A DNA stretch of 19,493 nt from a virus (IMGVR_UViG_3300028048_000050:1-19493), one strand, 5' to 3'. Counted from the first letter of the stretch, positions 1 to 19,493 are shown. The notes: a model not told the origin generated them from the letters alone. Numbers and translations are program-made.

Positions 1-204
1 TAATCCATTATCAGTTACTTTAATAACATGAAAATCATTTGTATCTTTAACAATTCCTCCCCACCATTTATTAGAACTTAAATACTCTATTATATTCTTG
101 TCTATTCCACATAAATGATAAGTATTATGAGTAGAAGTTTCACTTAAATCTATTAAACTATCTATAGTATTTTTTAATACTTTATAGTATAAATTACTTA
201 CCAT
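1..204 (-). CDS. Hypothetical protein, partial (runs off the left edge)
   Basis: Manual translation from ATG 204: MVSNLYYKVLKNTIDSLIDLSETSTHNTYHLCGIDKNIIEYLSSNKWWGGIVKDTNDFHVIKVTDNGL, open to the window edge; same strand as all neighbours. Confidence 0.65.
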   Translation of the reverse strand, partial: MVSNLYYKVLKNTIDSLIDLSETSTHNTYHLCGIDKNIIEYLSSNKWWGGIVKDTNDFHVIKVTDNGL

Positions 205-239
205 TTTCTCTTAAAATTCTACATTAACTACTAATTGAA

Positions 240-422
240 TCATACTTGTTCAATATTTGTTACTTCCGGATCTTCTATTTCACCTTCTTCCGAATCTTCT
301 ACTATTTCGTCATATGTACCAGATAATACTAAATCAGAAGCTTCATCAATACTATCAGCTTCAACTCTATAAGTTGTTTCATGTTCCACTACTCTGTGAA
401 GAGTTACTTCATATGTTTTCAT
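240..422 (-). CDS. Small acidic phage protein, DpnD/PcfM-like
   Basis: 60 aa; MKTYEVT...YRVEADSIDEA pattern resembles the DpnD/PcfM-like 'VEAxSxxEA' family (from memory); overlaps the upstream gene end. Confidence 0.6.
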   Translation of the reverse strand: MKTYEVTLHRVVEHETTYRVEADSIDEASDLVLSGTYDEIVEDSEEGEIEDPEVTNIEQV

Positions 423-759
423 AACGTTCTTTTATTTTATCTAAAATAAATGATAAAGCTTTATTTTCATCATATTCTCTTGTATCTAATTTTTCGTCAG
501 ATACAGTAAATGCAAAACAATTTAAATCGTCCTCTTCATGATGATGAAATAAATCTTCAGGAATAAAATTATCAAGTATATAATTCTCTAAATCTTCAGA
601 ATTAGTTAATACTTCAGGATTTTCGTAAATAAAATCCCATAAGTTATCTTCATAACACCATTCCCATAATTCTTCTAGAAATTCATTTTCATCTAAAATA
701 TTAAGGAAAGGATTAATAGATTTATTAATATCTATTATAATAAAATTGTATGTTGTCAT
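409..759 (-). CDS. Hypothetical acidic protein (116 aa)
   Basis: Track ORF 409..813; ATG at 759 (MTTYNF) lies 1 nt after the ligase TAA (761-763) and is the more plausible start. Confidence 0.7.
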   Translation of the reverse strand: MTTYNFIIIDINKSINPFLNILDENEFLEELWEWCYEDNLWDFIYENPEVLTNSEDLENYILDNFIPEDLFHHHEEDDLNCFAFTVSDEKLDTREYDENKALSFILDKIKERYENI

Positions 760-760
760 A

Positions 761-1984
761 TTAGATATCATATCTAAAAGCCTTAAAGGCTGGTTGAAGA
801 GGAACACCTTCATCAGAATAATAAAAGAATTTACATTCTCCTAATCTTCCTTTATATTTTTGTTCAAAATTATTCCAATATTCCTCTTTTTGTTCTCTAT
901 CTCCTAAAGGTTTAGCTTTAAATGTTTTTCCATCTTTGGTTTCACATATAAATACCATATCTTCAGAACCTCTTAATCCTAGTGCTGCATCAACTACTGT
1001 AAAGCAGTCATCTTTATAGCATTTGATTTTAATCATATCATTAGTTCTTTTTCCAAAACCATAAGGCTTATTTGGATTTCTAATAACTACTCCTTCAAAT
1101 CCTTCTTCTACATATTTATTATGTAATTCCATGATATTATCATAGCCAGATACTTTTACATGAGGAACCATTTGAAGTTGTAATTCTCCTTCTTCCCAAT
1201 GTCTATAAGGATCAAATGATAGACTAAGTTCTTTAGATATTTGATTAAGAATTTTAAGTCTAGTTTTAAATGGAATATTAGGATACATTACATCATAAAT
1301 GTATCCTTCTAACCATTTACAATCATAAGCATTCTTCTCTAAACGGGCAGCACCACTAATTTGTTGAAGACTTCTACCATGTTTATAAAGTTCCAAATCT
1401 AATATTACTTCTGGATGTCTTTGGAAAAACTCTATAAATTGTGGATGTTGAGTAAAATGAATACATGCCGAATCATAATTACCACCACCTCTAGAAGCAG
1501 TAACTATTTTACTTCCATTCCAATAAAAAGAACATCTTACTCCGTCTATTTTTCTTGAAGCATACCAATATTCTTCATTATCAATGGTAGATTTCTTTAC
1601 TTTATCAAATGCTTTAGCTAACATATGTTTCTTAAATCCATTAGCATCAGTATTTTCTTTAGGCAAAAGTTTATCAACTTCTTCTTTAGAATAAGTATAG
1701 AAATCTCTTTCTAATTCTTTATAACCCTTATCTTTCTTTTCTTTAATTAACGATAAGAATTTAAGAATAGTTTGTGCGTGTGTATCACGTTTTACTTTTC
1801 CTTCACAAATAGTAATACTAGGTTGTTCTACAACTTTACCACCCCATTGAGAAGATTGCCTATGAATTATATAACATTCGCCTTCTTTTTCATACCAAAT
1901 TTCAAAACATCTAATTTCTCCTTTAGCACCTCTAGTAACTAACCAAGTTCTAGTTTGTTCTTGTGAAGCAAATAAATCAGACAT
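761..1984 (-). CDS. lig: ATP-dependent DNA ligase
   Basis: Motif I ASRKIDGVRC (KxDG), motif III ILDLELY, motif IV EGFEGVVIR, motif V MIKIK, C-terminal OB domain; N-terminal ~100-aa WGR-like extension. Confidence 0.93.
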   Translation of the reverse strand: MSDLFASQEQTRTWLVTRGAKGEIRCFEIWYEKEGECYIIHRQSSQWGGKVVEQPSITICEGKVKRDTHAQTILKFLSLIKEKKDKGYKELERDFYTYSKEEVDKLLPKENTDANGFKKHMLAKAFDKVKKSTIDNEEYWYASRKIDGVRCSFYWNGSKIVTASRGGGNYDSACIHFTQHPQFIEFFQRHPEVILDLELYKHGRSLQQISGAARLEKNAYDCKWLEGYIYDVMYPNIPFKTRLKILNQISKELSLSFDPYRHWEEGELQLQMVPHVKVSGYDNIMELHNKYVEEGFEGVVIRNPNKPYGFGKRTNDMIKIKCYKDDCFTVVDAALGLRGSEDMVFICETKDGKTFKAKPLGDREQKEEYWNNFEQKYKGRLGECKFFYYSDEGVPLQPAFKAFRYDI

Positions 1985-2336
1985 TTTTGAAATACGCTTT
2001 TTTATCAGTTAAAAGGAAATCCCAAAGTTCTTCTAAACTATTTAGATGATATTTGATTTCCTTTTCTTCACCAAATATATCTCTTTCTTGTTTAACCGTA
2101 ACCAGTTTATCTTCTATATCTTCAAACATATAGTAAGATACCCAATCAGCTCCTTGTTCTGTAAAATGAGTATCTACAAATATATCAAACATTTTTCCTA
2201 CAGCTGAGTACCAATCTGATTCCCATAAATTACATCCATATTTAGAACCAGAAATAGCTACTTCCATTCTATCTACAGCCTTTTCAAATGTTTTAAATTC
2301 TGTAAGAAACTTGAAAAAATTCTCTTTGCTTATCAT
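1977..2336 (-). CDS. Hypothetical phage protein (119 aa)
   Basis: Intact ORF overlapping both neighbours; no recognised motif. Confidence 0.75.
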   Translation of the reverse strand: MISKENFFKFLTEFKTFEKAVDRMEVAISGSKYGCNLWESDWYSAVGKMFDIFVDTHFTEQGADWVSYYMFEDIEDKLVTVKQERDIFGEEKEIKYHLNSLEELWDFLLTDKKAYFKNV

Positions 2337-2833
2337 ACTTTAAAATTTGCATCGTCTCTTACAAGACCGCCGTCAGCTCCTCTTTCAGTTTCATCTAAAT
2401 CATCCACTTCTTCAAATTTCCAGTTTTCTGTTTTTCTTAGCATTACTTGAGCAACAGCATCTCCTACTTTATATGGAGCTAATTCATTCTCCATTTCAAG
2501 GATATTTAAATTGTAGTCTCCATCAGGAAATAATACGTCAAAAGAAGTTCTTAACTTAAAGAATACAAACCATTCTCCTCTATAACCAGAATCTATAGTT
2601 CCAGGAGCATTTGGAATATAAGCATCAGTTTTAGTATTAGAACTTCTAGGAACAATAGAACATTCATAACCTTCGGGAATAGCAGAAGCAAATCCTAAAC
2701 CATATTCAAATCTATCATATTTAGGATTATATTTCATAGAAGTAGCAATTAAATCTTTTCCAGCATCTCCAGAATGTTTAAATTGAGGAATTACAGCATT
2801 TTCATTAAGCTTTTTAAATTTGACATTAATCAT
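2333..2833 (-). CDS. dut: Trimeric dUTPase family protein (atypical motifs 4 and 5)
   Basis: VKFKKLNENAVIP start, motif 1 GDAGKDL, motif 2 PRSS, motif 3 GTIDSGYRGE, motif 4 GDAVAQ, motif 5 TERGADGG. Confidence 0.9.
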   Translation of the reverse strand: MINVKFKKLNENAVIPQFKHSGDAGKDLIATSMKYNPKYDRFEYGLGFASAIPEGYECSIVPRSSNTKTDAYIPNAPGTIDSGYRGEWFVFFKLRTSFDVLFPDGDYNLNILEMENELAPYKVGDAVAQVMLRKTENWKFEEVDDLDETERGADGGLVRDDANFKV

Positions 2834-3092
2834 TGTTATTGTAATAATTTATAAATTGTTGGCAAGCATTTCCACTTTCTGACCAAAAACACTTGATAAA
2901 TTTATCTTCATCATCATATAAAACTACAAAAGGATTTAATCTAGCACCAAATTCAGATTTAATTTGGTAACCTTCTTTCTTACCATTTTTAGTTTTAACA
3001 TCTATAAATTCCACAAAAAAAGGAGCTGAGAATTTAACTAATTCAATCAACTCCTTATCTTTTTTATCTTCATATACTACTTCAACTTTCAT
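2826..3092 (-). CDS. Hypothetical protein, possible thioredoxin/glutaredoxin-like fold lacking CxxC
   Basis: 88 aa; FGARLNPFVVLYD resembles the cis-Pro/beta-strand segment of redoxins; no N-terminal CxxC. Confidence 0.45.
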   Translation of the reverse strand: MKVEVVYEDKKDKELIELVKFSAPFFVEFIDVKTKNGKKEGYQIKSEFGARLNPFVVLYDDEDKFIKCFWSESGNACQQFINYYNNND

Positions 3093-3888
3093 AAAAACCT
3101 TTTTCTTCCGTTATTTCCCAAGTTAAAGTATCTATAATAAAACCTTTTCTACAATCTAAACATGCCCACTTTTTAGTAATTAGTGGACCCTTTAATTGTG
3201 TATGTCCAAATACTTGATATATTCCTTCTTCTCCAAGAGGACTTAATATTTTACTGGACATATTTACATGTTCCTTTATATCAGCCCATTCACAAGAACC
3301 ATATTCTGATTCTCCCCATCTATAATAAGATATATTGCTAATTAATTGTATATATTCATTATTTACTTTAGTTAAAGGAATATCATTTAATGCTAAAGCA
3401 ACATCCATTATAGATTTATATGCTGACTCTGGATACCTAAATTTTTTCCAGACTTCTTTAGCCCATCCATCAGTTATACCTGCGTGACTAAATATCACAT
3501 TATCTTCAACCCAAACCAAGTTAAAAAATTCTAAATTTTGTGAAAAAAACTTATGATATAATTCCCAATTTTTATAATCGGTTCGAGTTGCAGCATGGAA
3601 TTTAGACCAAATATAAGAGTCAGTATGATTTCCAGTTAATAAAATATATTTATTAGGTTCATTTTTCTTTAATGAAACAATATCATTTAACATTTTTAAA
3701 AGATTTTGAGAATCTTCAAATCTTTCACATTCCATAGATTTTGTTAAATAATTATCATGTATTTCATCATTGTATGGATCAAGATAGTCTCCTAAAAATA
3801 TTACTTTATCAACTCTATGTAAATTATTATGTATTGTCTCCCTCCAAAATTTCCTTCCGTGAAGGTCCGGAAGTATTAGAATTTTCAT
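3082..3888 (-). CDS. Calcineurin-like metallophosphoesterase
   Basis: DLHG, GDYLD, GNH, HAG and GHT motifs in canonical order. Confidence 0.9.
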   Translation of the reverse strand: MKILILPDLHGRKFWRETIHNNLHRVDKVIFLGDYLDPYNDEIHDNYLTKSMECERFEDSQNLLKMLNDIVSLKKNEPNKYILLTGNHTDSYIWSKFHAATRTDYKNWELYHKFFSQNLEFFNLVWVEDNVIFSHAGITDGWAKEVWKKFRYPESAYKSIMDVALALNDIPLTKVNNEYIQLISNISYYRWGESEYGSCEWADIKEHVNMSSKILSPLGEEGIYQVFGHTQLKGPLITKKWACLDCRKGFIIDTLTWEITEEKGFYES

Positions 3889-4147
3889 AGTTCATTCTAA
3901 ATCTAAAATCATTTATAAGAGGAATTAAATCCATCTCTAAATTATCTCCACATATACTCCATCCGTTTGTTTTTATGTGTATAAATTTACCTCCACCACC
4001 ATCTCTACTAGATAATGTTATTTCTTGAGGATCATCATCTCTACTTTCAGTACAATCCGGTTCTTGGATATATGTACAAGAAATAGAATCTAAAAGAATT
4101 TCATTTTCTTTTGGCCAGCCCTCTGTAATTACGTTAGCTCTATCCAT
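3827..4147 (-). CDS. Hypothetical phage protein (106 aa)
   Basis: Track ORF 3827..4204; ATG 4147 (MDRANV) avoids a long overlap with the membrane gene; contains RDGGGGKFIHIKTNGWSI; 3' end overlaps the next gene by 62 nt. Confidence 0.65.
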   Translation of the reverse strand: MDRANVITEGWPKENEILLDSISCTYIQEPDCTESRDDDPQEITLSSRDGGGGKFIHIKTNGWSICGDNLEMDLIPLINDFRFRMNYENSNTSGPSRKEILEGDNT

Positions 4148-4335
4148 ATTTTTAATATTAATGTTATTAAAAGTACGATTATAATTAACGCCAGTGGAAT
4201 CCATAATGGACTAAATACCCACCACCAACTCCAATCTATTTTATCATATATCTTAGCAAAGAAGAAAGCTAGAAATACTATTACAGCTAGTGGAGAAGCA
4301 CATCCAATGTTAATATTTTTATTTGTTGTTTCCAT
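4129..4335 (-). CDS. Small two-helix membrane protein (WSWWWVxSPLW type)
   Basis: Two hydrophobic segments flanking IDWSWWWVFSPLWIP, a motif I recognise from small phage membrane proteins. Confidence 0.75.
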   Translation of the reverse strand: METTNKNINIGCASPLAVIVFLAFFFAKIYDKIDWSWWWVFSPLWIPLALIIIVLLITLILKIWIELT

Positions 4336-4807
4336 GTTTCCAAAATTTATAAGTTATATCAATGGCTTTAAAATCATATTGACTATTACCTACATATTTT
4401 TGTTCAATTTTAAACATTCTTTGATTAGTATTTGGATTATCTAAAGAACCTTTTTCTTTTATATAAGGTCCTATTTTAATATAATCATAATTCCAAATTT
4501 CTAATTCTTTAGGTAAATCCGGAAGTCCTGTATACCAACCAACTTTTAAGTTAGTATGTAGTCTAATGAAATTTGCTAACTTATTTACTTCTTCTACATT
4601 ACCTCCCATAAATCCAACACATGTAATTCCTCTACTATGTTCTATAAGATTAGAAAGTTCTTCTTTCGTTAATTCTGTACCAATATCTTCCCAAAGTTCT
4701 GGACTATGACATCCAGGACAATGGAAAGGACAATTAGTTATATTTATACATAAAGCAATTTCATCTGGAAATTCACTAAATGTTATCATTGTATTAAGGT
4801 ATTTCAT
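4319..4807 (-). CDS. nrdG: Anaerobic ribonucleotide reductase activating enzyme (radical SAM)
   Basis: CPFHCPGC (CxxxCxxC), GFMGG, YIKIGPY, NTNQR; in the nrdD cluster. Confidence 0.93.
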   Translation of the reverse strand: MKYLNTMITFSEFPDEIALCINITNCPFHCPGCHSPELWEDIGTELTKEELSNLIEHSRGITCVGFMGGNVEEVNKLANFIRLHTNLKVGWYTGLPDLPKELEIWNYDYIKIGPYIKEKGSLDNPNTNQRMFKIEQKYVGNSQYDFKAIDITYKFWKHGNNK

Positions 4808-4809
4808 TT

Positions 4810-4914
4810 TTAATAATTATTTTTAGTATAAAGTTTATTTCCAGATTTCGTTTTTTCTAAATATTCTATTAATTCTGGGTCTGTAACTTTTTCCCATTCA
4901 TCTTCTTCATTCAT
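4810..4914 (-). CDS. Small hypothetical protein (34 aa)
   Basis: MNEEDEWEKVTDPELIEYLEKTKSGNKLYTKNNY; ATGA overlap with the FTR-like gene stop; TAA 2 nt before the nrdG ATG. Confidence 0.6.
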   Translation of the reverse strand: MNEEDEWEKVTDPELIEYLEKTKSGNKLYTKNNY

Positions 4915-5108
4915 ACTTCTTTAATATATAATTGGCAACAACATTTATCCCGTAATCTATAACTTTCACAGGGACAAGTAAGATCTCCATCGTTTTCCTC
5001 ATGAACACAAGGACATTTACCTTCATTTCTTTCTACTGCTTTAGTAATACCTTTAACAATTTTTTCATTTGGATTTAACTACCAACCTTCTTTAATTAAA
5101 TATTTCAT
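4911..5108 (-). CDS. Ferredoxin:thioredoxin reductase catalytic-subunit-like Fe-S protein (65 aa; in-frame TAG at codon 10)
   Basis: MKYLIKEGW[TAG]LNPNEKIVKGITKAVERNEGKCPCVHEENDGDLTCPCESYRLRDKCCCQLYIKEV; CPC/CPC/CxC motifs plus LNP; ATGA overlaps with the nrdD stop and the downstream ORF start. Confidence 0.85.
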
Positions 5109-7324
5109 CCAAACCAAACTCCTCCTTCCTCATTGTTATTAACACCGTAAACTCTTTTCTTTTGTTCTATTTTACGAGGATTACTAAAAGCACTTACAGG
5201 ACGAAGGTATCCAATAATTCTAGTCCAATAATCGATATTTTCACTACCACACTTAGGACATTTCTCAATAGGAGCATTTACTACATGACCACACTTTTTA
5301 CATTCACTTATAGGAATATTAAAAGTAAAGTAATTAGTACCTTCTTCTATAGCAAAATCAATTAATTTAAGATATTGTTCTTTCGAAAGATGTGCATCCA
5401 AGTTAGCGTGAAGTGCTTGTCCTCCATCACAATATGGAGCTACTTGTTTACCATGTAAAATAAATTTATCAAGAATAGAGGTATTGTCCCAAGGATTATA
5501 AAAATAACAGTTATATAAGTTCTGATCTTTAGGTACCCAATATCCATCCTTCTTATCATGTTCATAAAGTTTTACTCCTAATCCTTCTCCAGGAATTGCT
5601 TCACTATTAAATAAAATAGGTCTTTTCTTGTCTCTAATAGAATGTAATTTATTTTGTTCTTTAACAGTTCCAAATACTAATCGTAGAAATTTAATATATT
5701 CCTCATTATTAGAAACAGACATTCCTAAGAATTGAGCAGCTTCAGTATAACCGATAAGTCCAATAGTAGAATATAATTTTTTCATATAAATATATCCTCC
5801 ATTAGACGGACTGAACATACCTTTTTCTTCTAAATCATAAAGCATTGTTTTATATGCTATGTGATATTTGTAAACTCTCTCAAGAATACTGCAAAGATAA
5901 TTTCTAAAGCCTTCCATATCCTCTTCTGTAATATCTTTGTATAGAATACCAGAAGTTCCAAAGTAATTTGTATCTACAGTTTTAAAATAGTCTTGAGTGA
6001 TTCTATTAATATTAAGAGTAATTACATTACAAGAACCTGTCATAATTCCAGTCATTCCAGTAGTACTACTAAATGTATTTTCAGACATTTCATTAAGTAC
6101 TCTACAACAGCTAGCTAATGCTGATGGATTATTAGAAAGATAACAGAAGAAACTTCCACCTTTAGCCCATTCCTCGGCACATAAATCTTTATATTCCTTA
6201 TCAATTACATCATTACCATCATGTACCATAGCAAATGTGGTAACAGGGAATGTTAAAGGCTTAATAAGTCTAAGCTCTCTATGTAATTCCATGAATATTC
6301 TTTGAAGTGTATCTATTGCTTTCCATTCTGGTTTAGTTCCATCTGGATAATAGAATTCATCAAAGATAGATTCAAAATATGTTTTATCATAATACGAACA
6401 ATTACTAAATGGAGAATTATAACTTCTGTTACCAGCAGGCTGATTAACTCCATAAATAAATTGTTTCATACCTTTACGAATAGCTCTTCTAATAGTCATC
6501 GGTCTTAAACAATGATCAGATGTTGTATTTACATCTAATTTATTATACCAATTTGGACCATATTCTGCTATTACATAATAATTTAAAGCAATAAAGTAAT
6601 CACCTAAAGCTATAGCACCTTTTGCTGAGGCTGATAGTAAAAATACAAGATTTGTTACTTGTCCACTAAATGATTGAATATCGTTAGGAGGTGTTGGAGT
6701 TACTCCATCTATTACTCCTACTCCTTCAGCCATTAATGGGAATAAAGTTGCAGCCATACAATAAGGCTTAAGAACTGGAGAAGAAGCTTCGTCATGAGTA
6801 TAAATAACCCAATTCTCCAAATCCTTTATATATTGTTTACCCAAATCGTCTTCCTCAGGGAATAATTCATTGAGTTTATCTTTCATTCTTTGTCTTTGAA
6901 TACGTCTGTTTGTTACTTTATAAACTTCACCTTCTAAATTGGCTACATTTTTCATAGTAACATTAGCATTAGAATCTGTTTCTGAAGAAGTAGACGCATT
7001 ATCTCCAGAATTAGCATAATTATCCATGTAATCTAATCTTTCACGGATAAATCTTGCTTGTTTATGTTCTAATCTGTAAGTTTGATAACAATCTGCTATT
7101 TCGGAATAATCAAAGTTTCGTAATGTTTCAATTACTTGGTCTTGAATATCTTCAATAGTCATTTCATTCCATACTTTAACGGAATTAACTAATTCATTAT
7201 ATACATCATCATCTACAGTATATCCTACAGAATTAAAAGCAGCTTTAATTGCATTTTTAATCTTGTTAGGATTAAATTGTTCTTTTTTACCTGAACGTTT
7301 AATAATTAACATTTTTTCTTTCAT
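5105..7324 (-). CDS. nrdD: Anaerobic (class III) ribonucleoside-triphosphate reductase with N-terminal ATP cone
   Basis: ATP cone IIKRSGKKEQFNPNKI; finger-loop SCCR; Zn site CKKC...CPKC; glycyl-radical motif TRIIGY. Confidence 0.96.
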   Translation of the reverse strand: MKEKMLIIKRSGKKEQFNPNKIKNAIKAAFNSVGYTVDDDVYNELVNSVKVWNEMTIEDIQDQVIETLRNFDYSEIADCYQTYRLEHKQARFIRERLDYMDNYANSGDNASTSSETDSNANVTMKNVANLEGEVYKVTNRRIQRQRMKDKLNELFPEEDDLGKQYIKDLENWVIYTHDEASSPVLKPYCMAATLFPLMAEGVGVIDGVTPTPPNDIQSFSGQVTNLVFLLSASAKGAIALGDYFIALNYYVIAEYGPNWYNKLDVNTTSDHCLRPMTIRRAIRKGMKQFIYGVNQPAGNRSYNSPFSNCSYYDKTYFESIFDEFYYPDGTKPEWKAIDTLQRIFMELHRELRLIKPLTFPVTTFAMVHDGNDVIDKEYKDLCAEEWAKGGSFFCYLSNNPSALASCCRVLNEMSENTFSSTTGMTGIMTGSCNVITLNINRITQDYFKTVDTNYFGTSGILYKDITEEDMEGFRNYLCSILERVYKYHIAYKTMLYDLEEKGMFSPSNGGYIYMKKLYSTIGLIGYTEAAQFLGMSVSNNEEYIKFLRLVFGTVKEQNKLHSIRDKKRPILFNSEAIPGEGLGVKLYEHDKKDGYWVPKDQNLYNCYFYNPWDNTSILDKFILHGKQVAPYCDGGQALHANLDAHLSKEQYLKLIDFAIEEGTNYFTFNIPISECKKCGHVVNAPIEKCPKCGSENIDYWTRIIGYLRPVSAFSNPRKIEQKKRVYGVNNNEEGGVWFG

Positions 7325-7337
7325 AAAAATTTAAATT

Positions 7338-7378: not shown

Positions 7379-7392
7379 AATCAAAATCATAT

Positions 7393-8238
7393 TTAGAGGT
7401 CTAAATTATACATTTTACTAAAGTCCTCTAAAATATTCAATAGATCACTAGGTAATCTATCTAATGTTTCATCAGCCAAATCTTTTGGAATTCCCCAATA
7501 TGCTGCAGCTAAACTACCTGCTATACAAGCTTGAGTATCTGTATCTCCTCTTAATAATATAGCTTCTCTTATAGTTTCTTCATATGAATGACTGTAAAGA
7601 AAACAACTTATTGCTTCTGGAACTGATTTTTGACAACTTACTTCAAACTTATATCCAGAATTTCTAATTTCTTGAGGAGTCCTATCAACTTTATACTTAT
7701 AATCAATAGTAGGAATTAATACAAAACCTTCCATATAAGGTGTATCATAATTCTCCCAATCATTATATTGTAGAATTCTAAATATTAAATTAGCAATAAC
7801 TTGAGCACCTTTTATACCTTCTGGATGATTATGACTTACAGAAGCTGACATTCCAGCAACAAGTTTTGTAGTTTCTAAACTTTCAAAACAACATCCCACA
7901 GGACTTACTCTCATAGCTGAACCATTTCCCCAACTATTATAAGGTTTAGGATTTTCTGTTTTTAACCATTGACGAAAGTTACCTCCATATCCAGCATTAG
8001 GATATTTATTACCTAAATCTTGCATAATATTGATAAGATCATTAGTATTAAAAGGTTCTTCTAGTAACCATTTAGATACAGCTAAAGTCATTACAGAATC
8101 ATCAGAAAAACGTGAATCATCAGACCATAATGGAAAATCTTTTTCAATATGAACTCCTTTTCTAAGAAATTCATAAGGAACTTCAATCATATCTCCACAA
8201 ATAGCTCCTAGTACAGGATTTTTTATAAATTTATCCAT
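7393..8238 (-). CDS. ADP-ribosylglycohydrolase (DraG/ARH family)
   Basis: GAICGD..PYEF, SDDSVMT, SWGNGSAMRVSP, SHNHPEG and GDTDT metal-binding motifs. Confidence 0.92.
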   Translation of the reverse strand: MDKFIKNPVLGAICGDMIEVPYEFLRKGVHIEKDFPLWSDDSRFSDDSVMTLAVSKWLLEEPFNTNDLINIMQDLGNKYPNAGYGGNFRQWLKTENPKPYNSWGNGSAMRVSPVGCCFESLETTKLVAGMSASVSHNHPEGIKGAQVIANLIFRILQYNDWENYDTPYMEGFVLIPTIDYKYKVDRTPQEIRNSGYKFEVSCQKSVPEAISCFLYSHSYEETIREAILLRGDTDTQACIAGSLAAAYWGIPKDLADETLDRLPSDLLNILEDFSKMYNLDL

Positions 8239-8240
8239 AA

Positions 8241-8486
8241 TTAATTATATTGTTCATAAAAAGCAAACTTACTTAATAACATTCTTTTCCATGTTATTTC
8301 AGACTCTTCATTAAATGGATCAATAACTAGTATGTCTTCTCGTTGTCCATCACATAAAACTGAAGGTTCATATCTGATTATATCACAATCAACAAGAATT
8401 TGTCCAAATCTTAAATCTGGATGTTTTTCAACTAATTTAGAAAGGGTTTCTAATATTAATTTATTATACTTTTGCCTTTCTTTCAT
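8241..8486 (-). CDS. Hypothetical phage protein (PDLRFGQ family)
   Basis: 81 aa containing HPDLRFGQIL, a motif common in small phage proteins; coupled to neighbours. Confidence 0.75.
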   Translation of the reverse strand: MKERQKYNKLILETLSKLVEKHPDLRFGQILVDCDIIRYEPSVLCDGQREDILVIDPFNEESEITWKRMLLSKFAFYEQYN

Positions 8487-10635: not shown

Positions 10636-10638
10636 AAT

Positions 10639-12144: not shown

Positions 12145-12170
12145 TTTTCAATGTTGTACTATAGTGTTAT

Positions 12171-12211: not shown

Positions 12212-12238
12212 AATATTAAGAGTCTACAAAATCTGAGA

Positions 12239-12778
12239 TTAATCCATCACTTTGTAACCAAATACAAGCAACTTGCATGGCTGAGTACCCTTAGAAGGTA
12301 CATAGTTTACCTTAGCATAAAGAGAGTTCTTCTCCTTCATACGAGTTTCAATAACGAGGTCTACACCAACCTTGTTGTCGATAACCCACTCCTTAGCAGC
12401 TTGTTCAGCAGCCTTAGAAGTCTTCTCAGTGAAGATTTCCTCACCAGTATCTTGAGCACGACCTACATACACTCTTACTGGAGTATGTGTACGAGCCTCA
12501 TACTTAGGCTTTTCTACCTTATAAGGACGCTCTCTCGAATCAAGAACAGCTGACTGAAGAACGATATATGCACCATCATTAGGCATATTAAACTTCTTCT
12601 TCTTCAGATATTCTACCATCCACTCCTTAACATTATCTTCATTAGTTACATTCTCCTTAGCCCATTTCTTATAAGCCTGAGTAGCATCTACACGAAGGTT
12701 AAGCTTAGAGTTCTTCATTGCTTCATCTTTGGTCTGACCAATAGTCTCAAATTTTGTGAAAAATACGTTATTTTCCAT
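12239..12778 (-). CDS. Basic hypothetical protein, probably highly expressed (179 aa)
   Basis: Intact ORF with visibly more AAG/GAG/AAC/TTC/GGT/CGT codons than neighbours; long leader upstream and a strong terminator downstream. Confidence 0.8.
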   Translation of the reverse strand: MENNVFFTKFETIGQTKDEAMKNSKLNLRVDATQAYKKWAKENVTNEDNVKEWMVEYLKKKKFNMPNDGAYIVLQSAVLDSRERPYKVEKPKYEARTHTPVRVYVGRAQDTGEEIFTEKTSKAAEQAAKEWVIDNKVGVDLVIETRMKEKNSLYAKVNYVPSKGTQPCKLLVFGYKVMD

Positions 12779-12938
12779 AATAGTTAATAAAATTTACATC
12801 AATTCATTCGGATTTAATCCGTCATAACTATCTACTAAAATGGAAACATCTTTTCCCCCGAAGAGGAACATATTAAATTTATCATCAACTATGAGTAATC
12901 ATAGTTAATGAATGTTAAAATTAATTTTTTAACATTTG
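12779..12938 (-). promoter_or_regulatory. Structured 160-nt intergenic leader (four hairpins)
   Basis: Inverted repeats at 12911-12936, 12883-12910, 12853-12868 (cUUCGg loop on minus strand) and 12809-12821; longest non-coding stretch in the window. Confidence 0.5.
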
Positions 12939-13286
12939 TTAAAAGGGAAGATAAGAACTTAAAATTCCCCTTATTTCTTTAATAATATCTTGTCCTTTTA
13001 ATCCAAAAGTTGGAAATTCAGAACAAGAATATGCGAAATCCTTACAAACAATACTTAATCCAATTATGAACTTATCGGGTAAACCTAATTTATCAGATAA
13101 TTTCATTACCACTTGATAATAAGTTGTATCAGGATTTTTTAATTTCATCTTATGTGTTACATAACAGATTAATGAAATTAATTCCAGCTTCCTTTCAAAA
13201 GAAGTCATAGTGGAAGTAGGTTTAGGATTTAAATAACCTATACTAAATACATCTCTGTATAAATTTTCTAATTCTTTATATTTCAT
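12939..13286 (-). CDS. Hypothetical protein (115 aa)
   Basis: Intact ORF, ATGA-coupled to the exonuclease gene. Confidence 0.75.
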   Translation of the reverse strand: MKYKELENLYRDVFSIGYLNPKPTSTMTSFERKLELISLICYVTHKMKLKNPDTTYYQVVMKLSDKLGLPDKFIIGLSIVCKDFAYSCSEFPTFGLKGQDIIKEIRGILSSYLPF

Positions 13287-14314
13287 TTGAATTCAAATCC
13301 TTTTACTACATTTAAATAAGCTACAGTTTTTAATAAATACAAAGCTTCCTTCCACCCTGACAAGAATAATTTAGAAGTCATAGGATATACACGAGTTTCG
13401 TATTCTGGAATAGTAGAAACCACTAAGAAATTACCTTTAGTCATTGCTTGTTCAACATTATAATATTTCTTAGCAATTAATTTAAGTAACCATGAATAGA
13501 AAGCTATTTCTCTTTGATAACTATAGTAAGTTGGATCAAATATTGCTACAGGTCTTGATGTAGTTTTCAAATCATTAACTGTAAGAATATTATCTTCTGT
13601 ATCTATACTAAAGTTATCTAATTTAGCTTTTAACTTATATTGTCTTTTTTCATATCCTGGTACTTCCATCCATATATCCAACAAAATAGTCTTCTCATTA
13701 CCGATAATTGGATCAGATAAAGGATTAGAAGGATTGAGTAACTTTTGAATATCTTTATTTGCATTTAATGTTTTTAAACAATTATTTAATAATTCAAAAT
13801 TCTTTTCATCAGTATATATTCTTTCCTTATCTCCTTCTTTAATAGGATTATTTTGTTCATAAATAAACCTATCTCTCCAATAAGGTTCGGCTTTTTCTCT
13901 AAACTTCTTTATTATATTATCAGAAAGTTTATCTTTATAATAGCCTATTTCATAAGACTTAGCTTTTATTTCATTATCTGTTGGTGTTTTTCCATTAGAT
14001 TTATATAAAGATTCTGCCATTAATCCGGCTTTAGCAGTAGGTTTAAATACACCATCAATTACTTGATATTTATCACCTTGTAAAACTATTTGATGTATAA
14101 GACTACCAGTTTCAAAGGATGCAGAATAATCATTTTTTAATCCATCAAAGAAACTTTCAGCTCCATCAGTAACAAGCTTTCCTAATCTACTATTAGAAAT
14201 ATAATCACTATATTTCTCACTAAAGTATACAGAATCATCAATATCTTCTAATCTTAAAGAATCTAGTATTGGAGTTACTTTTATTTTTTTAATTAACTCA
14301 TTATCAAGTGTCAT
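13283..14314 (-). CDS. PD-(D/E)XK exonuclease (DUF3799/RecE-like)
   Basis: ISNSRLG, GSLIHQIVL, KAKLDNF, VNDLKTT and YQREIAFY motifs of phage RecE/Cas4-like nucleases. Confidence 0.8.
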   Translation of the reverse strand: MTLDNELIKKIKVTPILDSLRLEDIDDSVYFSEKYSDYISNSRLGKLVTDGAESFFDGLKNDYSASFETGSLIHQIVLQGDKYQVIDGVFKPTAKAGLMAESLYKSNGKTPTDNEIKAKSYEIGYYKDKLSDNIIKKFREKAEPYWRDRFIYEQNNPIKEGDKERIYTDEKNFELLNNCLKTLNANKDIQKLLNPSNPLSDPIIGNEKTILLDIWMEVPGYEKRQYKLKAKLDNFSIDTEDNILTVNDLKTTSRPVAIFDPTYYSYQREIAFYSWLLKLIAKKYYNVEQAMTKGNFLVVSTIPEYETRVYPMTSKLFLSGWKEALYLLKTVAYLNVVKGFEFK

Positions 14315-14841
14315 ATATATTTACTAAATTCTTTGAATATTCCCATTTCCTTTGCTAAATAATAAACATCTTCTATTTCATCATAGCTTAATGAATATAT
14401 TTTTAGAAAAGGACCATATTCTTTATTATTATCTCCATCAATTAATAAGCATGGAATACCAGCTAAATTTAAATTGATCCATTGATGGGGTGAATCTTCG
14501 ATAAAAACATCTACTCTTCCTTTAATATATCGAGATTTAGGAATTCTATATCCTGGTACCTGATACAACGGACTGTTAGGTAAATCATTTATTTGGATTG
14601 CCTTTTTAGTCCAACATTTTTTATTTACCCTAGAACTACAATATAGTTTAGGATCAAAATCAGGTCTTCTTATTACTGGTAAATTTACCCAAAAATCTCT
14701 CTCTTTGGAAAGTATATGTTCTACATTTCTTGTAACAGCCCAATCATATTTAGGCCATCTTTTAAATCGGTTGATATATCCTTTAGAAAATCCGAATATA
14801 GTATCATCTAAATCACAACCTATTTGTAAACGTTTAATCAT
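14311..14841 (-). CDS. HAD-superfamily 5'(3')-deoxyribonucleotidase-like protein
   Basis: HAD motif I CDLDDT, motif II CSSR, motif IV VFIEDS. Confidence 0.8.
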   Translation of the reverse strand: MIKRLQIGCDLDDTIFGFSKGYINRFKRWPKYDWAVTRNVEHILSKERDFWVNLPVIRRPDFDPKLYCSSRVNKKCWTKKAIQINDLPNSPLYQVPGYRIPKSRYIKGRVDVFIEDSPHQWINLNLAGIPCLLIDGDNNKEYGPFLKIYSLSYDEIEDVYYLAKEMGIFKEFSKYI

Positions 14842-14941
14842 TCTTTACTAAATTAGTTTCTAATCTAAACGTTTCTTTCTCTTCTTCAGATAAATTATTA
14901 TATGAAGTAATTAACCTTTTAATATAAGTTTCTCTTTTCAT
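14834..14941 (-). CDS. Small hypothetical protein (35 aa)
   Basis: MKRETYIKRLITSYNNLSEEEKETFRLETNLVKND fills the gap, with ATGA overlap upstream and 8-nt overlap downstream. Confidence 0.6.
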   Translation of the reverse strand: MKRETYIKRLITSYNNLSEEEKETFRLETNLVKND

Positions 14942-15168
14942 AATTCATCAATTTCTTCTAAATCTGACAATGCAATATCGAACTTATCATTCAGATATTC
15001 CCTTAATTGATCCCAATTTTCTATAGTGTTTAAAATAGTATCATCATCAAATTCTTCACCATATTTAATGATTAACTTTTCAACAGCATCATTATAGGAT
15101 CGTGCAACAAGAGTTTTAATTACTGGCCAAACATCTATAGGACATTCTGCCCATAAATACTTATTCAT
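14938..15168 (-). CDS. Hypothetical protein (76 aa)
   Basis: Intact ORF in the operon. Confidence 0.7.
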   Translation of the reverse strand: MNKYLWAECPIDVWPVIKTLVARSYNDAVEKLIIKYGEEFDDDTILNTIENWDQLREYLNDKFDIALSDLEEIDEL

Positions 15169-15174
15169 ATTTTA

Positions 15175-15798
15175 TTATTCAATAATTGTCCAAAGTTCAT
15201 AGAACTTATCAAAATCTTCATAGGGTAATATACTATATCCATCCTGTCCATAATGCTTACCCCAAGAATTTCTTATAATAAATCCGTCTTTATTATAACC
15301 TACTATTGCTATAGCATGTCCTCCTTCAAAAGAACCTTTACTTTTATCCCAGAAATTTTTTGTATAAGAATTATATACAGGCAATCCTCCTATACACGGT
15401 CCATTAGCTACAATAGCTTGTTTTAGAGCTAATTCTGAACCTATTCTAGCATATTTATGTACAATTCTCCTATTTCCAGATTTTATGATAGCATCGTTAT
15501 GTTTTAAATAATGTAAAGCATCTTTAAATGACATTCCATCATTACTTGAATTTGTTCTATGTTTAAAAATATCTGAACAATTTAGTCCGTTTTCATATTC
15601 ACTGTTTCCTGTTTCCATATTTATAATCCAATTAACATATGCAGATATTGAACATGGTACACAAACAGGATTATTTCCTTGGTTTAATACTTCAGGTAAA
15701 CAATCAACATAACTTATTTTATCGGGGATGGAACCATCATTAGATAGAAACATATATTCGGTTCCATCAATTTTCGACTGTACAAATCCAAAGTTCAT
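15175..15798 (-). CDS. Papain-like cysteine peptidase (C1A-like)
   Basis: Oxyanion Gln and nucleophile Cys (NQGNNPVCVPCS), His (GGHAIAIVGY), Asn (IRNSWG); no signal peptide. Confidence 0.88.
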   Translation of the reverse strand: MNFGFVQSKIDGTEYMFLSNDGSIPDKISYVDCLPEVLNQGNNPVCVPCSISAYVNWIINMETGNSEYENGLNCSDIFKHRTNSSNDGMSFKDALHYLKHNDAIIKSGNRRIVHKYARIGSELALKQAIVANGPCIGGLPVYNSYTKNFWDKSKGSFEGGHAIAIVGYNKDGFIIRNSWGKHYGQDGYSILPYEDFDKFYELWTIIE

Positions 15799-16100
15799 TA
15801 CTTAATTACTCTTTTAATTATTTTAACGCTATCATTATTTATCTTTTCAACTTTATATGTTGCATTATTTTTTGAACATACATAAATAGTAATTCTATCT
15901 TGTGTTTCTTCTTCTTTAAGATATAATTTATCCCATTTATCTATATAGGGTAAAAAATCCTATATACACATAGAATCTAACTAGGCAATAGAATATTTTC
16001 CATTCATCTAGTTAATCATCTATCCTCCAGATAAATCTATAACTTTAGGAGAACATGAAAACAATAGTAAAGTTAATAATAACTATGAAACTTTTTTCAT
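15798..16100 (-). CDS. Lipoprotein (100 aa) with five in-frame TAG codons
   Basis: MKKVS*LLLTLLLFSCSPKVIDLSGG*MIN*MNGKYSIA*LDSMCI*DFLPYIDKWDKLYLKEEETQDRITIYVCSKNNATYKVEKINNDSVKIIKRVIK; lipobox LFSC at Cys16; ATGA overlap upstream, TAATG overlap downstream. Confidence 0.85.
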
Positions 16101-16645
16101 TGCAATTTTAATTTTAAATAATCATATAATATCTCAACAGGAACTAATGCAAGTGTTCCTGGACTATTTCCACCTTCTTTATCTTGTTTTTTCCAAATAA
16201 CAACAAAAGGTTTATCCTTTAGAGGACATTCCTCTTCTATTTTAAAATATGAAGGAACTGTTTGTGTTGCTTTACATTGAATATAACAAGGTAAATTACC
16301 ATCTAAATCATCTATATCTACTTTGGAATTATCCAACATTTTACTATTTGACCGGCTACTTACTGTATGATAACCCATATCATTTAGTTTATGAATAACA
16401 TCTAGCTCAAGTTGTGAACCTTTTTGCTTAGATCTCTTAGCAGTATAATGTTTTTTTGTATGTGGATCTAACCACTCCACTTGTATTCCATCTTTAGGAA
16501 TACTATTTTTATTAGCCCTTATTTTTAATGTTTGAACTGATAAAGTAGTCATTTCAGATGCTTTTTCTATAGAATCATAAACATAAGTATTTCCACCTTT
16601 ATCAGTTATTTTTACACCAGTATTTAACTATTTAGCTTTTGCCAT
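16097..16645 (-). CDS. Holliday-junction resolvase (Hjc-like PD-(D/E)XK) with N-terminal NUMOD1-like HTH; TAG at codon 6 (182 aa)
   Basis: SKQKGSQLE..L..MGY, KVDI, IQCK core; frame extends 31 codons above track start 16552 to ATG 16645 through one TAG (MAKAK*LNTGVKITDKGGNTYVYDSIEKASEMTTLS). Confidence 0.78.
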
Positions 16646-16775
16646 CGTATTTACTATTACTTGTTTCTCTAAGATAAACTCCAATTATCTTATACCAAAT
16701 ATCTTCTACACTGTAATTATATTCACAGGACTCTAATCCTTTTTCAATAATTTTAAAAAGTTCTTGCTTAGTCAT
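16632..16775 (-). CDS. Small hypothetical protein (47 aa)
   Basis: MTKQELFKIIEKGLESCEYNYSVEDIWYKIIGVYLRETSNSKYDGKS; ATGA overlap upstream; stop overlaps ATG 16645 region by 14 nt. Confidence 0.65.
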   Translation of the reverse strand: MTKQELFKIIEKGLESCEYNYSVEDIWYKIIGVYLRETSNSKYDGKS

Positions 16776-16981
16776 TTTATAACATGAACTATAGACCAAA
16801 ATATATGTCTTTCAATATATTGACCTCTTGGTATTTCATCTTCTGCAAAAGAGGCTGTAATATCAAATATATTTAATTTATTACCAGACCAAATGTCTGG
16901 CATACCTCCACATTTCATAAGTTTTGGAGGTTCTGCAAATACATGAGAACCAGTCCAATCTTTAGCTAAATATACTTTCAT
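16772..16981 (-). CDS. Hypothetical protein (69 aa)
   Basis: ATGA-coupled at both ends. Confidence 0.7.
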   Translation of the reverse strand: MKVYLAKDWTGSHVFAEPPKLMKCGGMPDIWSGNKLNIFDITASFAEDEIPRGQYIERHIFWSIVHVIK

Positions 16982-17979
16982 TTTAATTTATACTCTTTAA
17001 AAAAATCATCAACATACTCTTTCATATTATCTACTCCTACTAATTTAATAGAATCAGTAAAATCTTTAGATAAATAGAAAGGTAAATAAAAATAATTTAA
17101 TTCTGGATGTTGCTTACGAATAAGCCACATATTATGTTTTCCAGGTCTATCATTATCATATAATACTAATATATGTTTAAACCTTTGTTTGAACTCTTCT
17201 AGTTTCTTATCTTCAATAAATAAAGTTTCACTATTAGGACTTACCGCTGCTATTCCAAAACCATAAAGAGCTACTACATCTTTCATAGATTTTGTAATAA
17301 CTAACAAATCCCCAGTCTTTGGTAATTGATGATAACCTTGAAGAACTTTTTTAGAAAGATTATTTAAAAATCTATATTCTGTTTTTAGAGGAAAATATAT
17401 TTTCCATTTTTCAATACCATTTTTATCTTTACCAAAATAATATCCATAAATAGGACTTTTTTCATCAGAAGTAAATTTCAATGCTCCGTTAAGAAAAACG
17501 TGTTGTAAAGAATATATATGATACTTTTTTAGTAGCTTTTTAGAAATACCAAAAGATTTCCACCATTCTAATTCTTGTTCTGTATAATCCTTTATTTGAA
17601 CCTGTATTCTAGTTTTCTCAGTTTCTTTTAAGGGCTGAACAAGTTTTGGTGCTTCTTTCAAATTACTATTAGAACCTCCAATTAATCTAAAATCTCTAGC
17701 TATTATTTGTAATGCTTCATAATAGTTTACACCATATTTCTTCATTACTACCTGAAAACAATTTATGTGTTCATTGGTAGCAAAATCATGTAAATATAAT
17801 ATATTAGATTTAGATTTATATAAGGCACAAGTAACTTTATGATCATTTCTAAATGGAGATAGATGTAACTTTTTGCTAGTTACATCTATTCCAGTATAGA
17901 ATTGCATTATAGATTCCTGATTTATTTTAGAAAATATAAATTCCTTAGTTATTTCTGGTTCTAATGCTGAAAAATACAT
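16978..17979 (-). CDS. DNA primase (TOPRIM, DnaG-like)
   Basis: N-terminal SPFRND...LHDF domain; TOPRIM VITKSMKDV and LYDND (DxD); start may be 17979 or 18006. Confidence 0.85.
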   Translation of the reverse strand: MYFSALEPEITKEFIFSKINQESIMQFYTGIDVTSKKLHLSPFRNDHKVTCALYKSKSNILYLHDFATNEHINCFQVVMKKYGVNYYEALQIIARDFRLIGGSNSNLKEAPKLVQPLKETEKTRIQVQIKDYTEQELEWWKSFGISKKLLKKYHIYSLQHVFLNGALKFTSDEKSPIYGYYFGKDKNGIEKWKIYFPLKTEYRFLNNLSKKVLQGYHQLPKTGDLLVITKSMKDVVALYGFGIAAVSPNSETLFIEDKKLEEFKQRFKHILVLYDNDRPGKHNMWLIRKQHPELNYFYLPFYLSKDFTDSIKLVGVDNMKEYVDDFFKEYKLK

Positions 17980-18023
17980 AATTGATAATTTAAATTTTCT
18001 AAACAAGAATCTTATAATCTATA

Positions 18024-18737
18024 TTATTCGTCTAAATCAATGTCTAAATCAACTTCAGCATCGGCAGTATCAGGATTATCATCGTTATTATCCTTCATAG
18101 CTGTAGGCTTAGCCTCTTGATACTTCTTCATTTGAGTTAACTCATAATTACTCCAATTAAGAAGTTTCTTATCAAGAGAAACAAAGTTCAAAGCAGAAGG
18201 CTTTGTATCTGGTTTAGCGTCCTTACCTAATACACAAGAACTAGGAAGGGTTGAGAATGTCTGGTTATTTGTAGTACGACCAACAAGCTTTAGGAAGAAC
18301 TTAACATCAGTCTTTCCAGAAAGAGCTTTGATGATAAGATCTACAAACTGCTCCATACTCTTTAACTTAGAAGCATTCTCTTTAATCTTAGCAGCACCCT
18401 TAGGATTAACTACTTCAGTTAACTGCATAAGGGTATACTGGAATTGCTCGAAAGCAGAAGGATACTTAGCTCCACTGGTTTCATTAGTTCTTCTCTCGAA
18501 ATCAGAATCTTTAGTAGGAATAAACAGATTATGATTATATACACCTGTTTGATCTCCACAACCTGTAAATTCAATAGCAATTACAGGATATTCTGTGCCA
18601 TCCTTACCTTTCAAAGAAGTTTGTTCAATCTTTGTAAGATTTACCTCATAAATATCATAAGGACGAAGGTACTGAGGACCATTGTTTGTGAAAGAAGTTT
18701 CATTTAAACCATTAAAACTAAAATTTGCCATATTCAT
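18024..18737 (-). CDS. Putative single-stranded DNA-binding protein
   Basis: Between the AAA ATPase and primase; beta-rich N-terminus; acidic tail DADAEVDLDIDLDE-like (ADAEVDLDIDLDE); high-expression codon bias. Confidence 0.6.
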   Translation of the reverse strand: MNMANFSFNGLNETSFTNNGPQYLRPYDIYEVNLTKIEQTSLKGKDGTEYPVIAIEFTGCGDQTGVYNHNLFIPTKDSDFERRTNETSGAKYPSAFEQFQYTLMQLTEVVNPKGAAKIKENASKLKSMEQFVDLIIKALSGKTDVKFFLKLVGRTTNNQTFSTLPSSCVLGKDAKPDTKPSALNFVSLDKKLLNWSNYELTQMKKYQEAKPTAMKDNNDDNPDTADAEVDLDIDLDE

Positions 18738-18789
18738 TAATACATTTTAAAATTTAGTACATTATATAGTACCATCATAAGTATCTATA

Positions 18790-19365
18790 TTAGTCGTCAA
18801 TATCGAGATCAAAACTAATATCTGCTGCTTCTACTCCATCTTCATCAACATCTAAATCTTCATCAGAAGGATTAGCTATTTCATCAGGAATATCTACAGT
18901 ATCGTCTTCTTTTTCAGGAGCATCACCTACAAGCTTAAACCAACCATCCTTACCTTCATAAGGAACTACATCAAATACAGTTCCATATTCAGCAAGATTA
19001 TCGTGTTTAGAACCTCTACAACTAATAGTATTAGTCTTAGTTAATCTATTACCTTTAGATAAATCTTCAAGCAGAATAGGAGTTATTTTCTTACCTTCTT
19101 TGTTGAAACGAATATCAATCTTCATTTCAGCTTCCCATCCAGTTAATTCCATTGCAGCATTATTCAACTGAATCTTACCCTCTAATAAAGTTGCTTTAGG
19201 ATTAGGATCTCCATCATCCTTTGGTTTACGTGTTCTTGTAGTAGTAGAAGCAGATTTCTTAACTTCCTTAAAATCTCCTAGAGTAGCCTCTCTAGTAATA
19301 ATTTCTCCTGTCTCTTTATCAACAATAGACAGAATAAGTTTAGCTGATTGAATTTCTAATTCCAT
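18790..19365 (-). CDS. Replication-module protein with SSB-like acidic tail (191 aa)
   Basis: Intact ORF ending DEDGVEAADISFDLDIDD; TAATG-coupled to the ATPase. Confidence 0.7.
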   Translation of the reverse strand: MELEIQSAKLILSIVDKETGEIITREATLGDFKEVKKSASTTTRTRKPKDDGDPNPKATLLEGKIQLNNAAMELTGWEAEMKIDIRFNKEGKKITPILLEDLSKGNRLTKTNTISCRGSKHDNLAEYGTVFDVVPYEGKDGWFKLVGDAPEKEDDTVDIPDEIANPSDEDLDVDEDGVEAADISFDLDIDD

Positions 19366-19493
19366 TATAATTCTTCTTCCTCTTCACCATTATATTCTCT
19401 AATGACTTTAAGAATTTCATTTAAGTCATTATCAATTTCCATATCTTTAAACATATCCATAGGAGTTTTAGCAAGACACTTACCATCATTATT
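19365..19493 (-). CDS. C-terminal end of AAA_24/Sak4-like ATPase, partial
   Basis: NNDGKCLAKTPMDMFKDMEIDNDLNEILKVIREYNGEEEEEL*; AKTP..MF....IDNDL is the typical C-terminal signature as I recall it. Confidence 0.7.
   Translation of the reverse strand, partial: NNDGKCLAKTPMDMFKDMEIDNDLNEILKVIREYNGEEEEEL

Follow-up and report, generated by a model that had tools for sequence, protein, structure and literature searches.

The first 19,493 bases of the virus record IMGVR_UViG_3300028048_000050, a single sequence of 179,115 bp, form the window analysed here. According to lists of open reading frames (ORFs) and to Pfam and PHROG matches, this stretch (1-19,493) is a block of 35 genes, all of them minus-strand, for replication and nucleotide metabolism that makes very little use of the amber codon TAG. 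In-frame TAGs are confined to three genes, coding for a putative DNA endonuclease, a small lipoprotein and a protein resembling ferredoxin:thioredoxin reductase (FTR-like). We regard it as probable that the phage genome is dual-coded, with TAG read as glutamine (Gln), and that the window represents its low-amber half. The recoding of TAG to Gln in this phage is, taken by itself, close to certain. From the codon comparisons presented below, it also appears highly probable that the TAG near the start of the endonuclease gene has been selectively retained.

The recoding is apparent at the scale of the whole genome. The greedy ORF cover rises from 65.6% under translation table 11 to 92.3% when TAG is taken as a sense codon, while taking TGA as sense yields only 68.2%, and between 120 and 160 kb the cover goes from 31-47% to 99-100%. 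With TAG as sense, 585 in-frame TAGs are found in 95 of the 234 ORFs, mostly in the plus-strand structural block. TAG accounts for 32.8% of the Gln-like codons of this late block, which extends from approximately 69-70 to 163 kb, as against 3.9% in the window (p = 1e-19). The base that follows in-frame TAGs is sense-like, with G in 30% of cases compared with 5-8% after true stops. As for in-frame use of TGA, our search of the genome yielded a single candidate join, at genome position 42,019 on the minus strand.

Within the window, complete ORFs of at least 55 amino acids (n = 32) end with TAA (18) or TGA (14) and never with TAG, and three small gap-filling ORFs (4810-4914, 14834-14941 and 19365-19460) all end with TAA. 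An earlier note on this DNA had counted 35 gene ends with 21 TAA, 14 TGA and no TAG, and our recount gives identical figures. The probability of finding no TAG among 35 stops ranges from 0.025 to 2.6e-5 if TAG is assumed to represent 10-26% of stops, the upper share being that of a TGA-recoding relative, G004. Inside the window genes, the coding strand shows seven TAGs in frame, compared with 239 and 144 in the two other frames. The same note had placed seven in-frame TAGs in three otherwise intact genes; all their coordinates match ours, and three stretches apparently free of genes under table 11 turn out to hold intact ones when TAG is read through. It had also set NrdD, with about 20 Gln codons and no TAG, against the lipoprotein, with five TAG and one CAA; we obtained the same count for the latter, and 19 CAA, two CAG and no TAG among the 21 Gln codons of the anaerobic ribonucleotide reductase gene nrdD (5105-7324, minus strand; Pfam NRDD, 1.8e-78). 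The replication and nucleotide genes shun TAG as a terminator and as a sense codon alike, and for this reason their reading does not change between the host's standard code and that of the phage. A similar picture emerges from G001, the closest complete relative: among its 23 genes that are syntenic orthologues of window genes, the nuclease gene alone has TAG, apart from a TAG at codon 2 of nrdD that is probably a mis-called start.

To identify the amino acid inserted at TAG, we turned to the portal gene of the late block, which contains 17 TAGs, and compared it with 80 IMG/VR homologues, 42 of which are devoid of TAG; the comparison was made on DNA loci rather than on predicted proteins to avoid circularity. 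Of the 712 cells that the 42 TAG-free homologues contribute to the columns aligned with the 17 TAGs, 459 (64%) are Gln, for a Gln background of 6.7%, and the columns of the portal's own CAA/CAG codons hold 52% Gln. Gln is the majority residue at 12 of the 17 columns, and four columns contain only Gln or TAG across all 80 homologues. TAG also alternates with CAA/CAG at codons 31 and 40 of the lipoprotein gene and at the Gln of an N-Q-G-x4-C motif in the neighbouring peptidase gene. Homologous sequences, whose residues at the TAG positions the earlier note had proposed to tabulate, continue through these positions and mostly have Gln there.

The genome contains 33 tRNA genes according to ARAGORN. 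The suppressor tRNA with a CUA anticodon that the same note had anticipated was found at genome positions 72,400-72,489 on the plus strand (Rfam tRNA, 58.8 bits), a few kb into the TAG-rich block. It would be the likely decoder of TAG, leaving TAA and TGA as stops. This 90-nt tRNA has the anticodon loop CUCUAAA and, in its variable region, an extra hairpin with the 7-nt loop CUCUGAA that contains the Gln anticodon CUG, as confirmed in both sequence and fold. It is tempting to speculate that the extra hairpin might be a decoy element for recognition by glutaminyl-tRNA synthetase. A DNA search of four relatives for the 90-nt tRNA was negative, and G001 carries a different CUA tRNA of 73 nt. A second CUA candidate in the window phage is weak (38 bits). 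There is also a well-formed UCA tRNA at genome positions 34,217-34,290 on the minus strand (61 bits), although 14 window genes end with TGA. The release factor gene envisaged in the note as another possible actor did not materialize, since no RF1 or RF2 domain was found in the genome; we thus saw a suppressor without a release factor rather than a full 'code-change module', the genes of aminoacyl-tRNA synthetases, including that for Gln, not having been searched for. Altogether, the amber-to-Gln recoding put forward in the note is supported by coding density, by the CUA tRNA and by the residues of homologues. The Zeta phage Lera (PMC12386605), whose genome of 179,624 bp is similar in size to the 179,115 bp of the window phage, likewise has both CUA and UCA tRNAs and a single reassigned stop, yet it is the mirror image of the window phage: in Lera TGA is reassigned and the CTA tRNA is apparently unused, while in the window phage TAG is reassigned and the UCA tRNA is apparently unused. 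Other Rfam tRNA matches are unusually long, between 110 and 153 nt (L078:15595-15704, 16508-16622 and 12251-12403), which suggests tRNA genes with inserts.

The most informative of the three TAG-bearing genes of the window codes for a putative DNA endonuclease of 182 residues (16097-16645, minus strand), with an I-HmuI/I-TevI-like DNA-binding domain followed by a C-terminal resolvase-like domain. In the structural model, the identification of the N-terminal domain as I-HmuI/I-TevI-type is well supported, with a Foldseek match to 1u3e at a probability of 1.0 and a VIA-align Z score of 7.1 for residues 1-62. The protein was also assessed as a Holliday-junction resolvase or PD-(D/E)xK nuclease, for which a nuclease fold with catalytic acidic residues and Lys would be expected. 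The PHROG match of its C-terminal domain is to phrog_244, 'RusA-like Holliday junction resolvase' (E = 2e-8); its similarity to Hjc is weak (phmmer E = 0.5), and the corresponding half of the model is of low confidence and has generic fold matches only (Z 5-7). Codon 6 of this core syntenic gene is TAG (16628-16630). We compared the codons of 20 distinct orthologues from IMG/VR, ENA and Logan, with protein identities down to 49% and 9-43% of same-residue codons differing. All 20 have at least one TAG, and in 19 of them it lies within codons 3-7, in a hypervariable tail that precedes an LNT motif. The tail is found in 15 versions, 14 of which contain TAG, such as MAKAKq, MKq, MKKq, MKqKQ, MGKNq and MKqKKE, where q stands for TAG. 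The only orthologue without a TAG in the tail (L200) has one at codon 36. Counted over all orthologues, the tail contains 19 TAG versus three CAA/CAG, and the remainder of the gene two TAG versus 152 CAA/CAG (Fisher test, 2e-20, uncorrected for ancestry). The TAG must be read through, because there is no ATG, GTG or TTG up to codon 45 and the intervening protein sequence is conserved. As far as the literature was searched, this conserved N-terminal amber codon has not been described before.

A single other gene of the low-amber domain, outside the window, contains TAG in a robust manner. It codes for a PDDEXK_5 endonuclease (genome 28,990-29,475, minus strand; L077:9990-10475; Pfam 2.2e-31) and has three in-frame TAGs, such that two of the four TAG-bearing genes of the low-amber domain are nucleases. 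Regarding the immediate context of the codons, the TAGs of the nuclease (16622-16630) and FTR-like (5073-5081) genes lie in the identical 9-nt sequence TAG TTA AAT (q-L-N). T follows four of the seven window TAGs, compared with 59% of true TAA stops and 22% of in-frame TAGs genome-wide, a marginal difference (P about 0.05).

The lipoprotein gene (15798-16100, minus strand; 100 residues) overlaps both of its neighbours and is therefore probably on the same transcript. The predicted protein has a signal peptide with an LFSC lipobox. The first TAG, at codon 6 (16083-16085), lies inside the signal peptide; this codon is TAG in seven of seven orthologues at the DNA level, and in the wider family Gln is not conserved at this position. 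Four more TAGs (15960-16022) occupy codons 27 (16020-16022), 31 (16008-16010), 40 (15981-15983) and 47 (15960-15962). Codon 31 is TAG in six orthologues and CAA/CAG in one, and codon 40 is TAG in four, CAA/CAG in two and a Ser codon in one. The family motif Q-x-D-S-x-C has its almost invariant Gln at the latter codon. Five of the six Gln-like codons of the gene are thus TAG, compared with two of 172 elsewhere in the window (p = 9e-8), which exceeds even the share in the late block (P = 0.017). The selective placement of TAG claimed in the earlier note is supported by this imbalance and by the presence of TAG in all 20 nuclease orthologues. As for the function of the lipoprotein, searches of Pfam and PHROGs gave no match, its AlphaFold model is poor (predicted local distance difference test score of 63) and has no Foldseek match in the PDB, and a scan of IMG/VR found no relatives. 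A profile search retrieved at least 116 representative clusters, and the source names of the 10 that were looked up are all 'hypothetical protein'.

The downstream gene (15175-15798, minus strand) codes for a papain-family cysteine peptidase of 207 residues (Pfam Peptidase_C1, 1.4e-9) with neither TAG nor signal peptide. In its orthologues, the Gln of the N-Q-G-x4-C motif is encoded by TAG in four of six cases and codon 15 is TAG in five of six; judging by the spacing of the motif, that Gln probably corresponds to Gln19 of the papain oxyanion hole. We considered that the lipoprotein might inhibit the adjacent peptidase and dropped the idea, as the peptidase has no signal peptide and the lipoprotein is predicted to be exported. 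Together, the two genes (15175-16100) form an accessory cassette found in several ENA/Logan contigs. It is absent from G001, in which the nuclease gene directly adjoins a gene for a 76-residue protein, and from four other related IMG/VR genomes.

The third TAG-bearing gene (4911-5108, minus strand; 65 residues) is located between nrdD and a gene for an NrdG-like activase, with an ATGA start/stop overlap with nrdD. Its product was compared with the FeThRed_B family on the basis of the Pfam gathering threshold and the CPC...CPC...CHC cysteine motifs: it scores 22.5 bits for a cut-off of 22, and the motifs CPC, CPC and CCC are present, the third without His. We found 58 full-length homologues. 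The gene is readable only with TAG as a sense codon, because no ATG, GTG or TTG is present downstream of the TAG at codon 10 (5079-5081, minus strand). In the aligned codons of 71 IMG/VR loci, this position is AAA/AAG in 25, ATT/ATA/ATC in 22, CAA/CAG in 11, ATG in six and TAG in three close relatives; in G001 it is AAA.

What purpose could these codons serve? We lean, by a narrow margin, towards a delaying or gating function of the window TAGs, as judged from their distribution. As long as host release factor 1 is unopposed, ribosomes would stop after a few codons, and the nuclease and the lipoprotein would be withheld. Accumulation of the phage CUA tRNA would then allow the TAG-bearing genes to be translated. 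Such timing would be independent of transcription, because the overlapping neighbour genes are TAG-free. The structural and virion genes use TAG for about a third of their Gln residues, with the replication block avoiding it. A more specific proposal, which we put forward tentatively and hold a little less likely than not to be right, is that an early single amber codon acts as a dedicated translational timer, or 'amber gate', selected as a codon rather than as a Gln residue, which would delay the endonucleases and the lipoprotein inside operons that are transcribed early and written in the standard code until the suppressor tRNA builds up. The TAG at codon 6 of the nuclease gene is the proposed gate. 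If this holds true, amber gating may be general for nucleases within the low-amber halves of dual-coded phages. Our observations suggest that, besides lysis genes, nucleases and an exported lipoprotein may be among the functions that a phage prefers to hold back.

Classical amber suppression offers a close parallel. In Escherichia coli, supE tRNA-Gln(CUA) suppresses the conditional amber mutants of phages such as T4 and lambda; there too, genes interrupted early by an amber codon are expressed as protein only with a Gln-inserting suppressor, and the genes discussed here would be built-in conditional amber alleles. The differences are that the suppressor is supplied by the phage during infection, and that the amber codons are maintained in evolution rather than being laboratory mutations. 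To our knowledge, the role of recoding as a timer of late functions, although widely cited, has never been directly tested. The nuclease gene would be an unusually clean test case, with one codon at positions 3-7, present in every relative, and TAG-free overlapping neighbours.

Recoding has already been described for crAss-like phages (Yutin 2021, PMC7886860; Borges 2022, bioRxiv 10.1101/2021.08.26.457843; Peters 2022, PMC9523058). Genomes of this kind have been called 'dual-coded' in the Mgcod study (bioRxiv 10.1101/2022.06.29.495998), and a 2026 preprint reports a bimodal 'low-amber/high-amber' arrangement of the same kind. The idea of withholding and then translating is that of the published Yutin 2021/Borges 2022 model, applied here to the exceptions inside the early block. 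In the Borges model, stop-codon recoding regulates late and lysis genes post-transcriptionally, and Agate phages have a TGA-rich intron homing endonuclease within an early gene (bioRxiv 10.1101/2021.08.26.457843). The window phage likewise has a few recoded genes in a standard-code block, including a nuclease with a homing-endonuclease-type DNA-binding domain, and the logic is shared, with no protein made until the suppressor acts. A gene-specific TAG bias beyond the block average, as that model expects, is seen in the lipoprotein gene (five of six Gln-like codons) and in the nuclease tail (19 versus three). Unlike in the Agate case, the recoded codon is TAG rather than TGA, and what sets the nuclease gene apart is not an overall enrichment but a single TAG at codons 3-7 of a free-standing, syntenic core gene with 20 orthologues.

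Several other explanations have to be weighed against a gating role. TAG might simply be one more Gln codon that leaks neutrally into the block, its few occurrences being incidental in dispensable, weakly expressed or late genes. The variable position of the FTR-like TAG fits this view, as does the fact that TAG is one step from TAT, AAG, TTG or CAG, with codon 15 of the peptidase alternating between Tyr and TAG. A count of 22 genes with a TAG in their first 10 codons genome-wide, for 15.5 +/- 2.2 expected, is confounded by start-site calls. Neutral leakage accounts poorly for the nuclease, in which TAG is kept in every orthologue despite a tail that varies in sequence and length, while the rest of the gene almost exclusively uses CAA/CAG, and in which the one orthologue that has lost the TAG of the tail has acquired another at codon 36. 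It does not readily explain either why TAG usage in the lipoprotein gene surpasses the late-block share. Overall, we find this explanation rather unlikely, although clearly the strongest of the competitors. Less likely still, and compatible with the reading that we prefer, is that the lipoprotein-peptidase cassette came out of a TAG-rich, late-type setting in another recoded phage and is still unadjusted. The lack of the cassette in five related IMG/VR genomes, G001 among them, and the presence of TAG in both genes of cassette orthologues are in favour of such an origin. Nevertheless, codons 6 and 31 remain TAG in seven and six of seven lipoprotein orthologues with a protein divergence of up to 37%, the peptidase gene of the window has lost all its TAGs, which means that adjustment does happen, and an import leaves the core syntenic nuclease gene unexplained.

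The two other alternatives concern the recoding itself. A reading of TAG as Tyr, Lys, Glu, Leu, Ser, Trp or pyrrolysine, or its ambiguous reading by two suppressor tRNAs, might be suggested by the 'Pyl' label that ARAGORN gives to both CUA tRNAs, by the long, class II-like extra arm of the main one, by the weak second candidate, and by a few TAG columns in which homologues mostly have Tyr, Glu, Asn or Thr. We deem it very improbable, given the Gln-majority portal columns, four of which hold nothing other than Gln or TAG, the encoding by TAG of the nearly invariant Gln of the lipoprotein family and, in orthologues, of the peptidase motif Gln, and the resemblance of the extra-arm loop of the main CUA tRNA to the Gln anticodon CUG. 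In addition, metaproteomic data from other crAss-like phages show Gln at TAG (PMC9523058). As for pseudogenes with nonsense mutations, or sequencing or assembly errors, all three frames are indeed interrupted under table 11. However, the interruptions are TAG only, never TAA or TGA, dozens of orthologues preserve the protein sequence before and after the TAGs, and the pattern is genome-wide. Moreover, the same TAGs recur in independent assemblies (L166-L169, L219-L221, L170-L173, L196-L217) and in runs of several studies: contigs of an RNA-library run are identical to the window over its full length, and a run from another study spans 15389-16077 with seven differences, all away from the TAG positions. 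The earlier note had named assembly errors as a finding that would overturn its proposal; they can be dismissed here, and we give the whole explanation next to no credence.

Other observations weigh against the preferred reading, that of a low-amber half with gated exceptions. The FTR-like TAG may be incidental, because the site is variable (Lys, Ile, Gln or Met) and has AAA in G001. The cassette being accessory, its richness in TAG could stem from its origin and not from regulation. The Fisher test over nuclease orthologues ignores their shared ancestry, and TAG is mutationally 'sticky', the rare CAG being its sole one-step synonymous neighbour. The Gln identity of the CUA tRNA derives from protein alignments, and its likeness to the phage's own tRNAs is indecisive. 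The RNA-library contigs that cover the window indicate presence only and not transcription, strand or timing. Finally, the relative G004, of 167.5 kb, reassigns TGA instead of TAG (ORF coverage going from 75% to 91%), and its TGAs are scattered in early genes, with seven in NrdD, six in the primase and three in the exonuclease-like gene; the early/late partition is therefore not universal in the clade. ARAGORN detected no suppressor tRNA in G004. Convergent gating in that phage was considered and rejected, as TGA throughout its early genes gives no gene-specific signal. G001 is itself TAG-recoded, its ORF coverage increasing from 63% to 92% with TAG as sense. The recoded stop thus differs between related phages, TAG in the window phage and TGA in G004.

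Regarding its identity, the genome belongs to a crAss-like phage that has the size of the Zeta group and comes from bovine gut metagenomes, a description based on shared traits. The traits compared were crAss-type TerL, portal and major capsid protein (MCP), a genome of 145-192 kb, very large virion RNA polymerase-like proteins and many tRNAs. The record has a 251-bp terminal overlap and is 99% complete according to CheckV, and the phage was detected in bovine gut metagenomes of 17 studies. PHROG matches identify TerL (phrog_6681, 1.8e-67), the portal (phrog_6547, 3.6e-49) and MCP (phrog_11589, 7.6e-10), all in the late plus-strand block, which also includes ORFs of 3136 and 3353 residues. Like the crAss-like phages of the Zeta group that use code 15, the window phage has crAss-type TerL, portal and MCP, a genome length between 145 and 192 kb, numerous tRNAs with a CUA suppressor among them, TAG read as Gln mainly in late genes, and a replication block that fits both codes. 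It differs from them in coming from bovine instead of human gut, and in having no close GenBank relative: the only GenBank phage record that matches the window covers 5% of it at 72% identity.

Among late genes, those most heavily used or needed earliest avoid TAG. In the MCP gene (L081:11366-12793) none of 17 Gln-like codons is TAG (P = 0.001), and in that of TerL (L080:2456-4732) three of 31 are, which fits with TAG being a slow or costly codon. A genome-wide bias of TAG towards the 5' ends of genes was rejected as confounded by longest-ORF starts, and four such cases in the early block are probably false extensions because an ATG is present just after the TAG. We also rejected the idea that former stops survive as surplus TAGs towards the ends of genes, the count being no higher than chance. 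A few ORFs genome-wide do have a TAG in their last 1-4 codons, and these could be old stops with a back-up stop. Two small ORFs of the early block (genome 23,417-23,617 and 21,909-22,157; L077:4417-4617 and L077:2909-3157) have their sole TAG one and thirteen codons, respectively, ahead of the next TAA or TGA. These TAGs could be terminators with a back-up stop, as in some Zeta phages.

For annotation, the consequence is that table 11 loses or truncates three real genes of the window and fragments a third of the genome, and code 15 is required. Apart from those already described, the genes of the window, which has a G+C content of 28.5%, include those for a DNA ligase, a dUTPase, a metallophosphoesterase, a primase, an exonuclease-like protein and an ADP-ribosylglycohydrolase. 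In contigs of two independent DNA runs, approximately 853-913 bases are skipped at window positions 7387-8241, which is exactly the ADP-ribosylglycohydrolase gene (7393-8238). Judging from these contigs, this gene appears to be present in some strains and absent from others.

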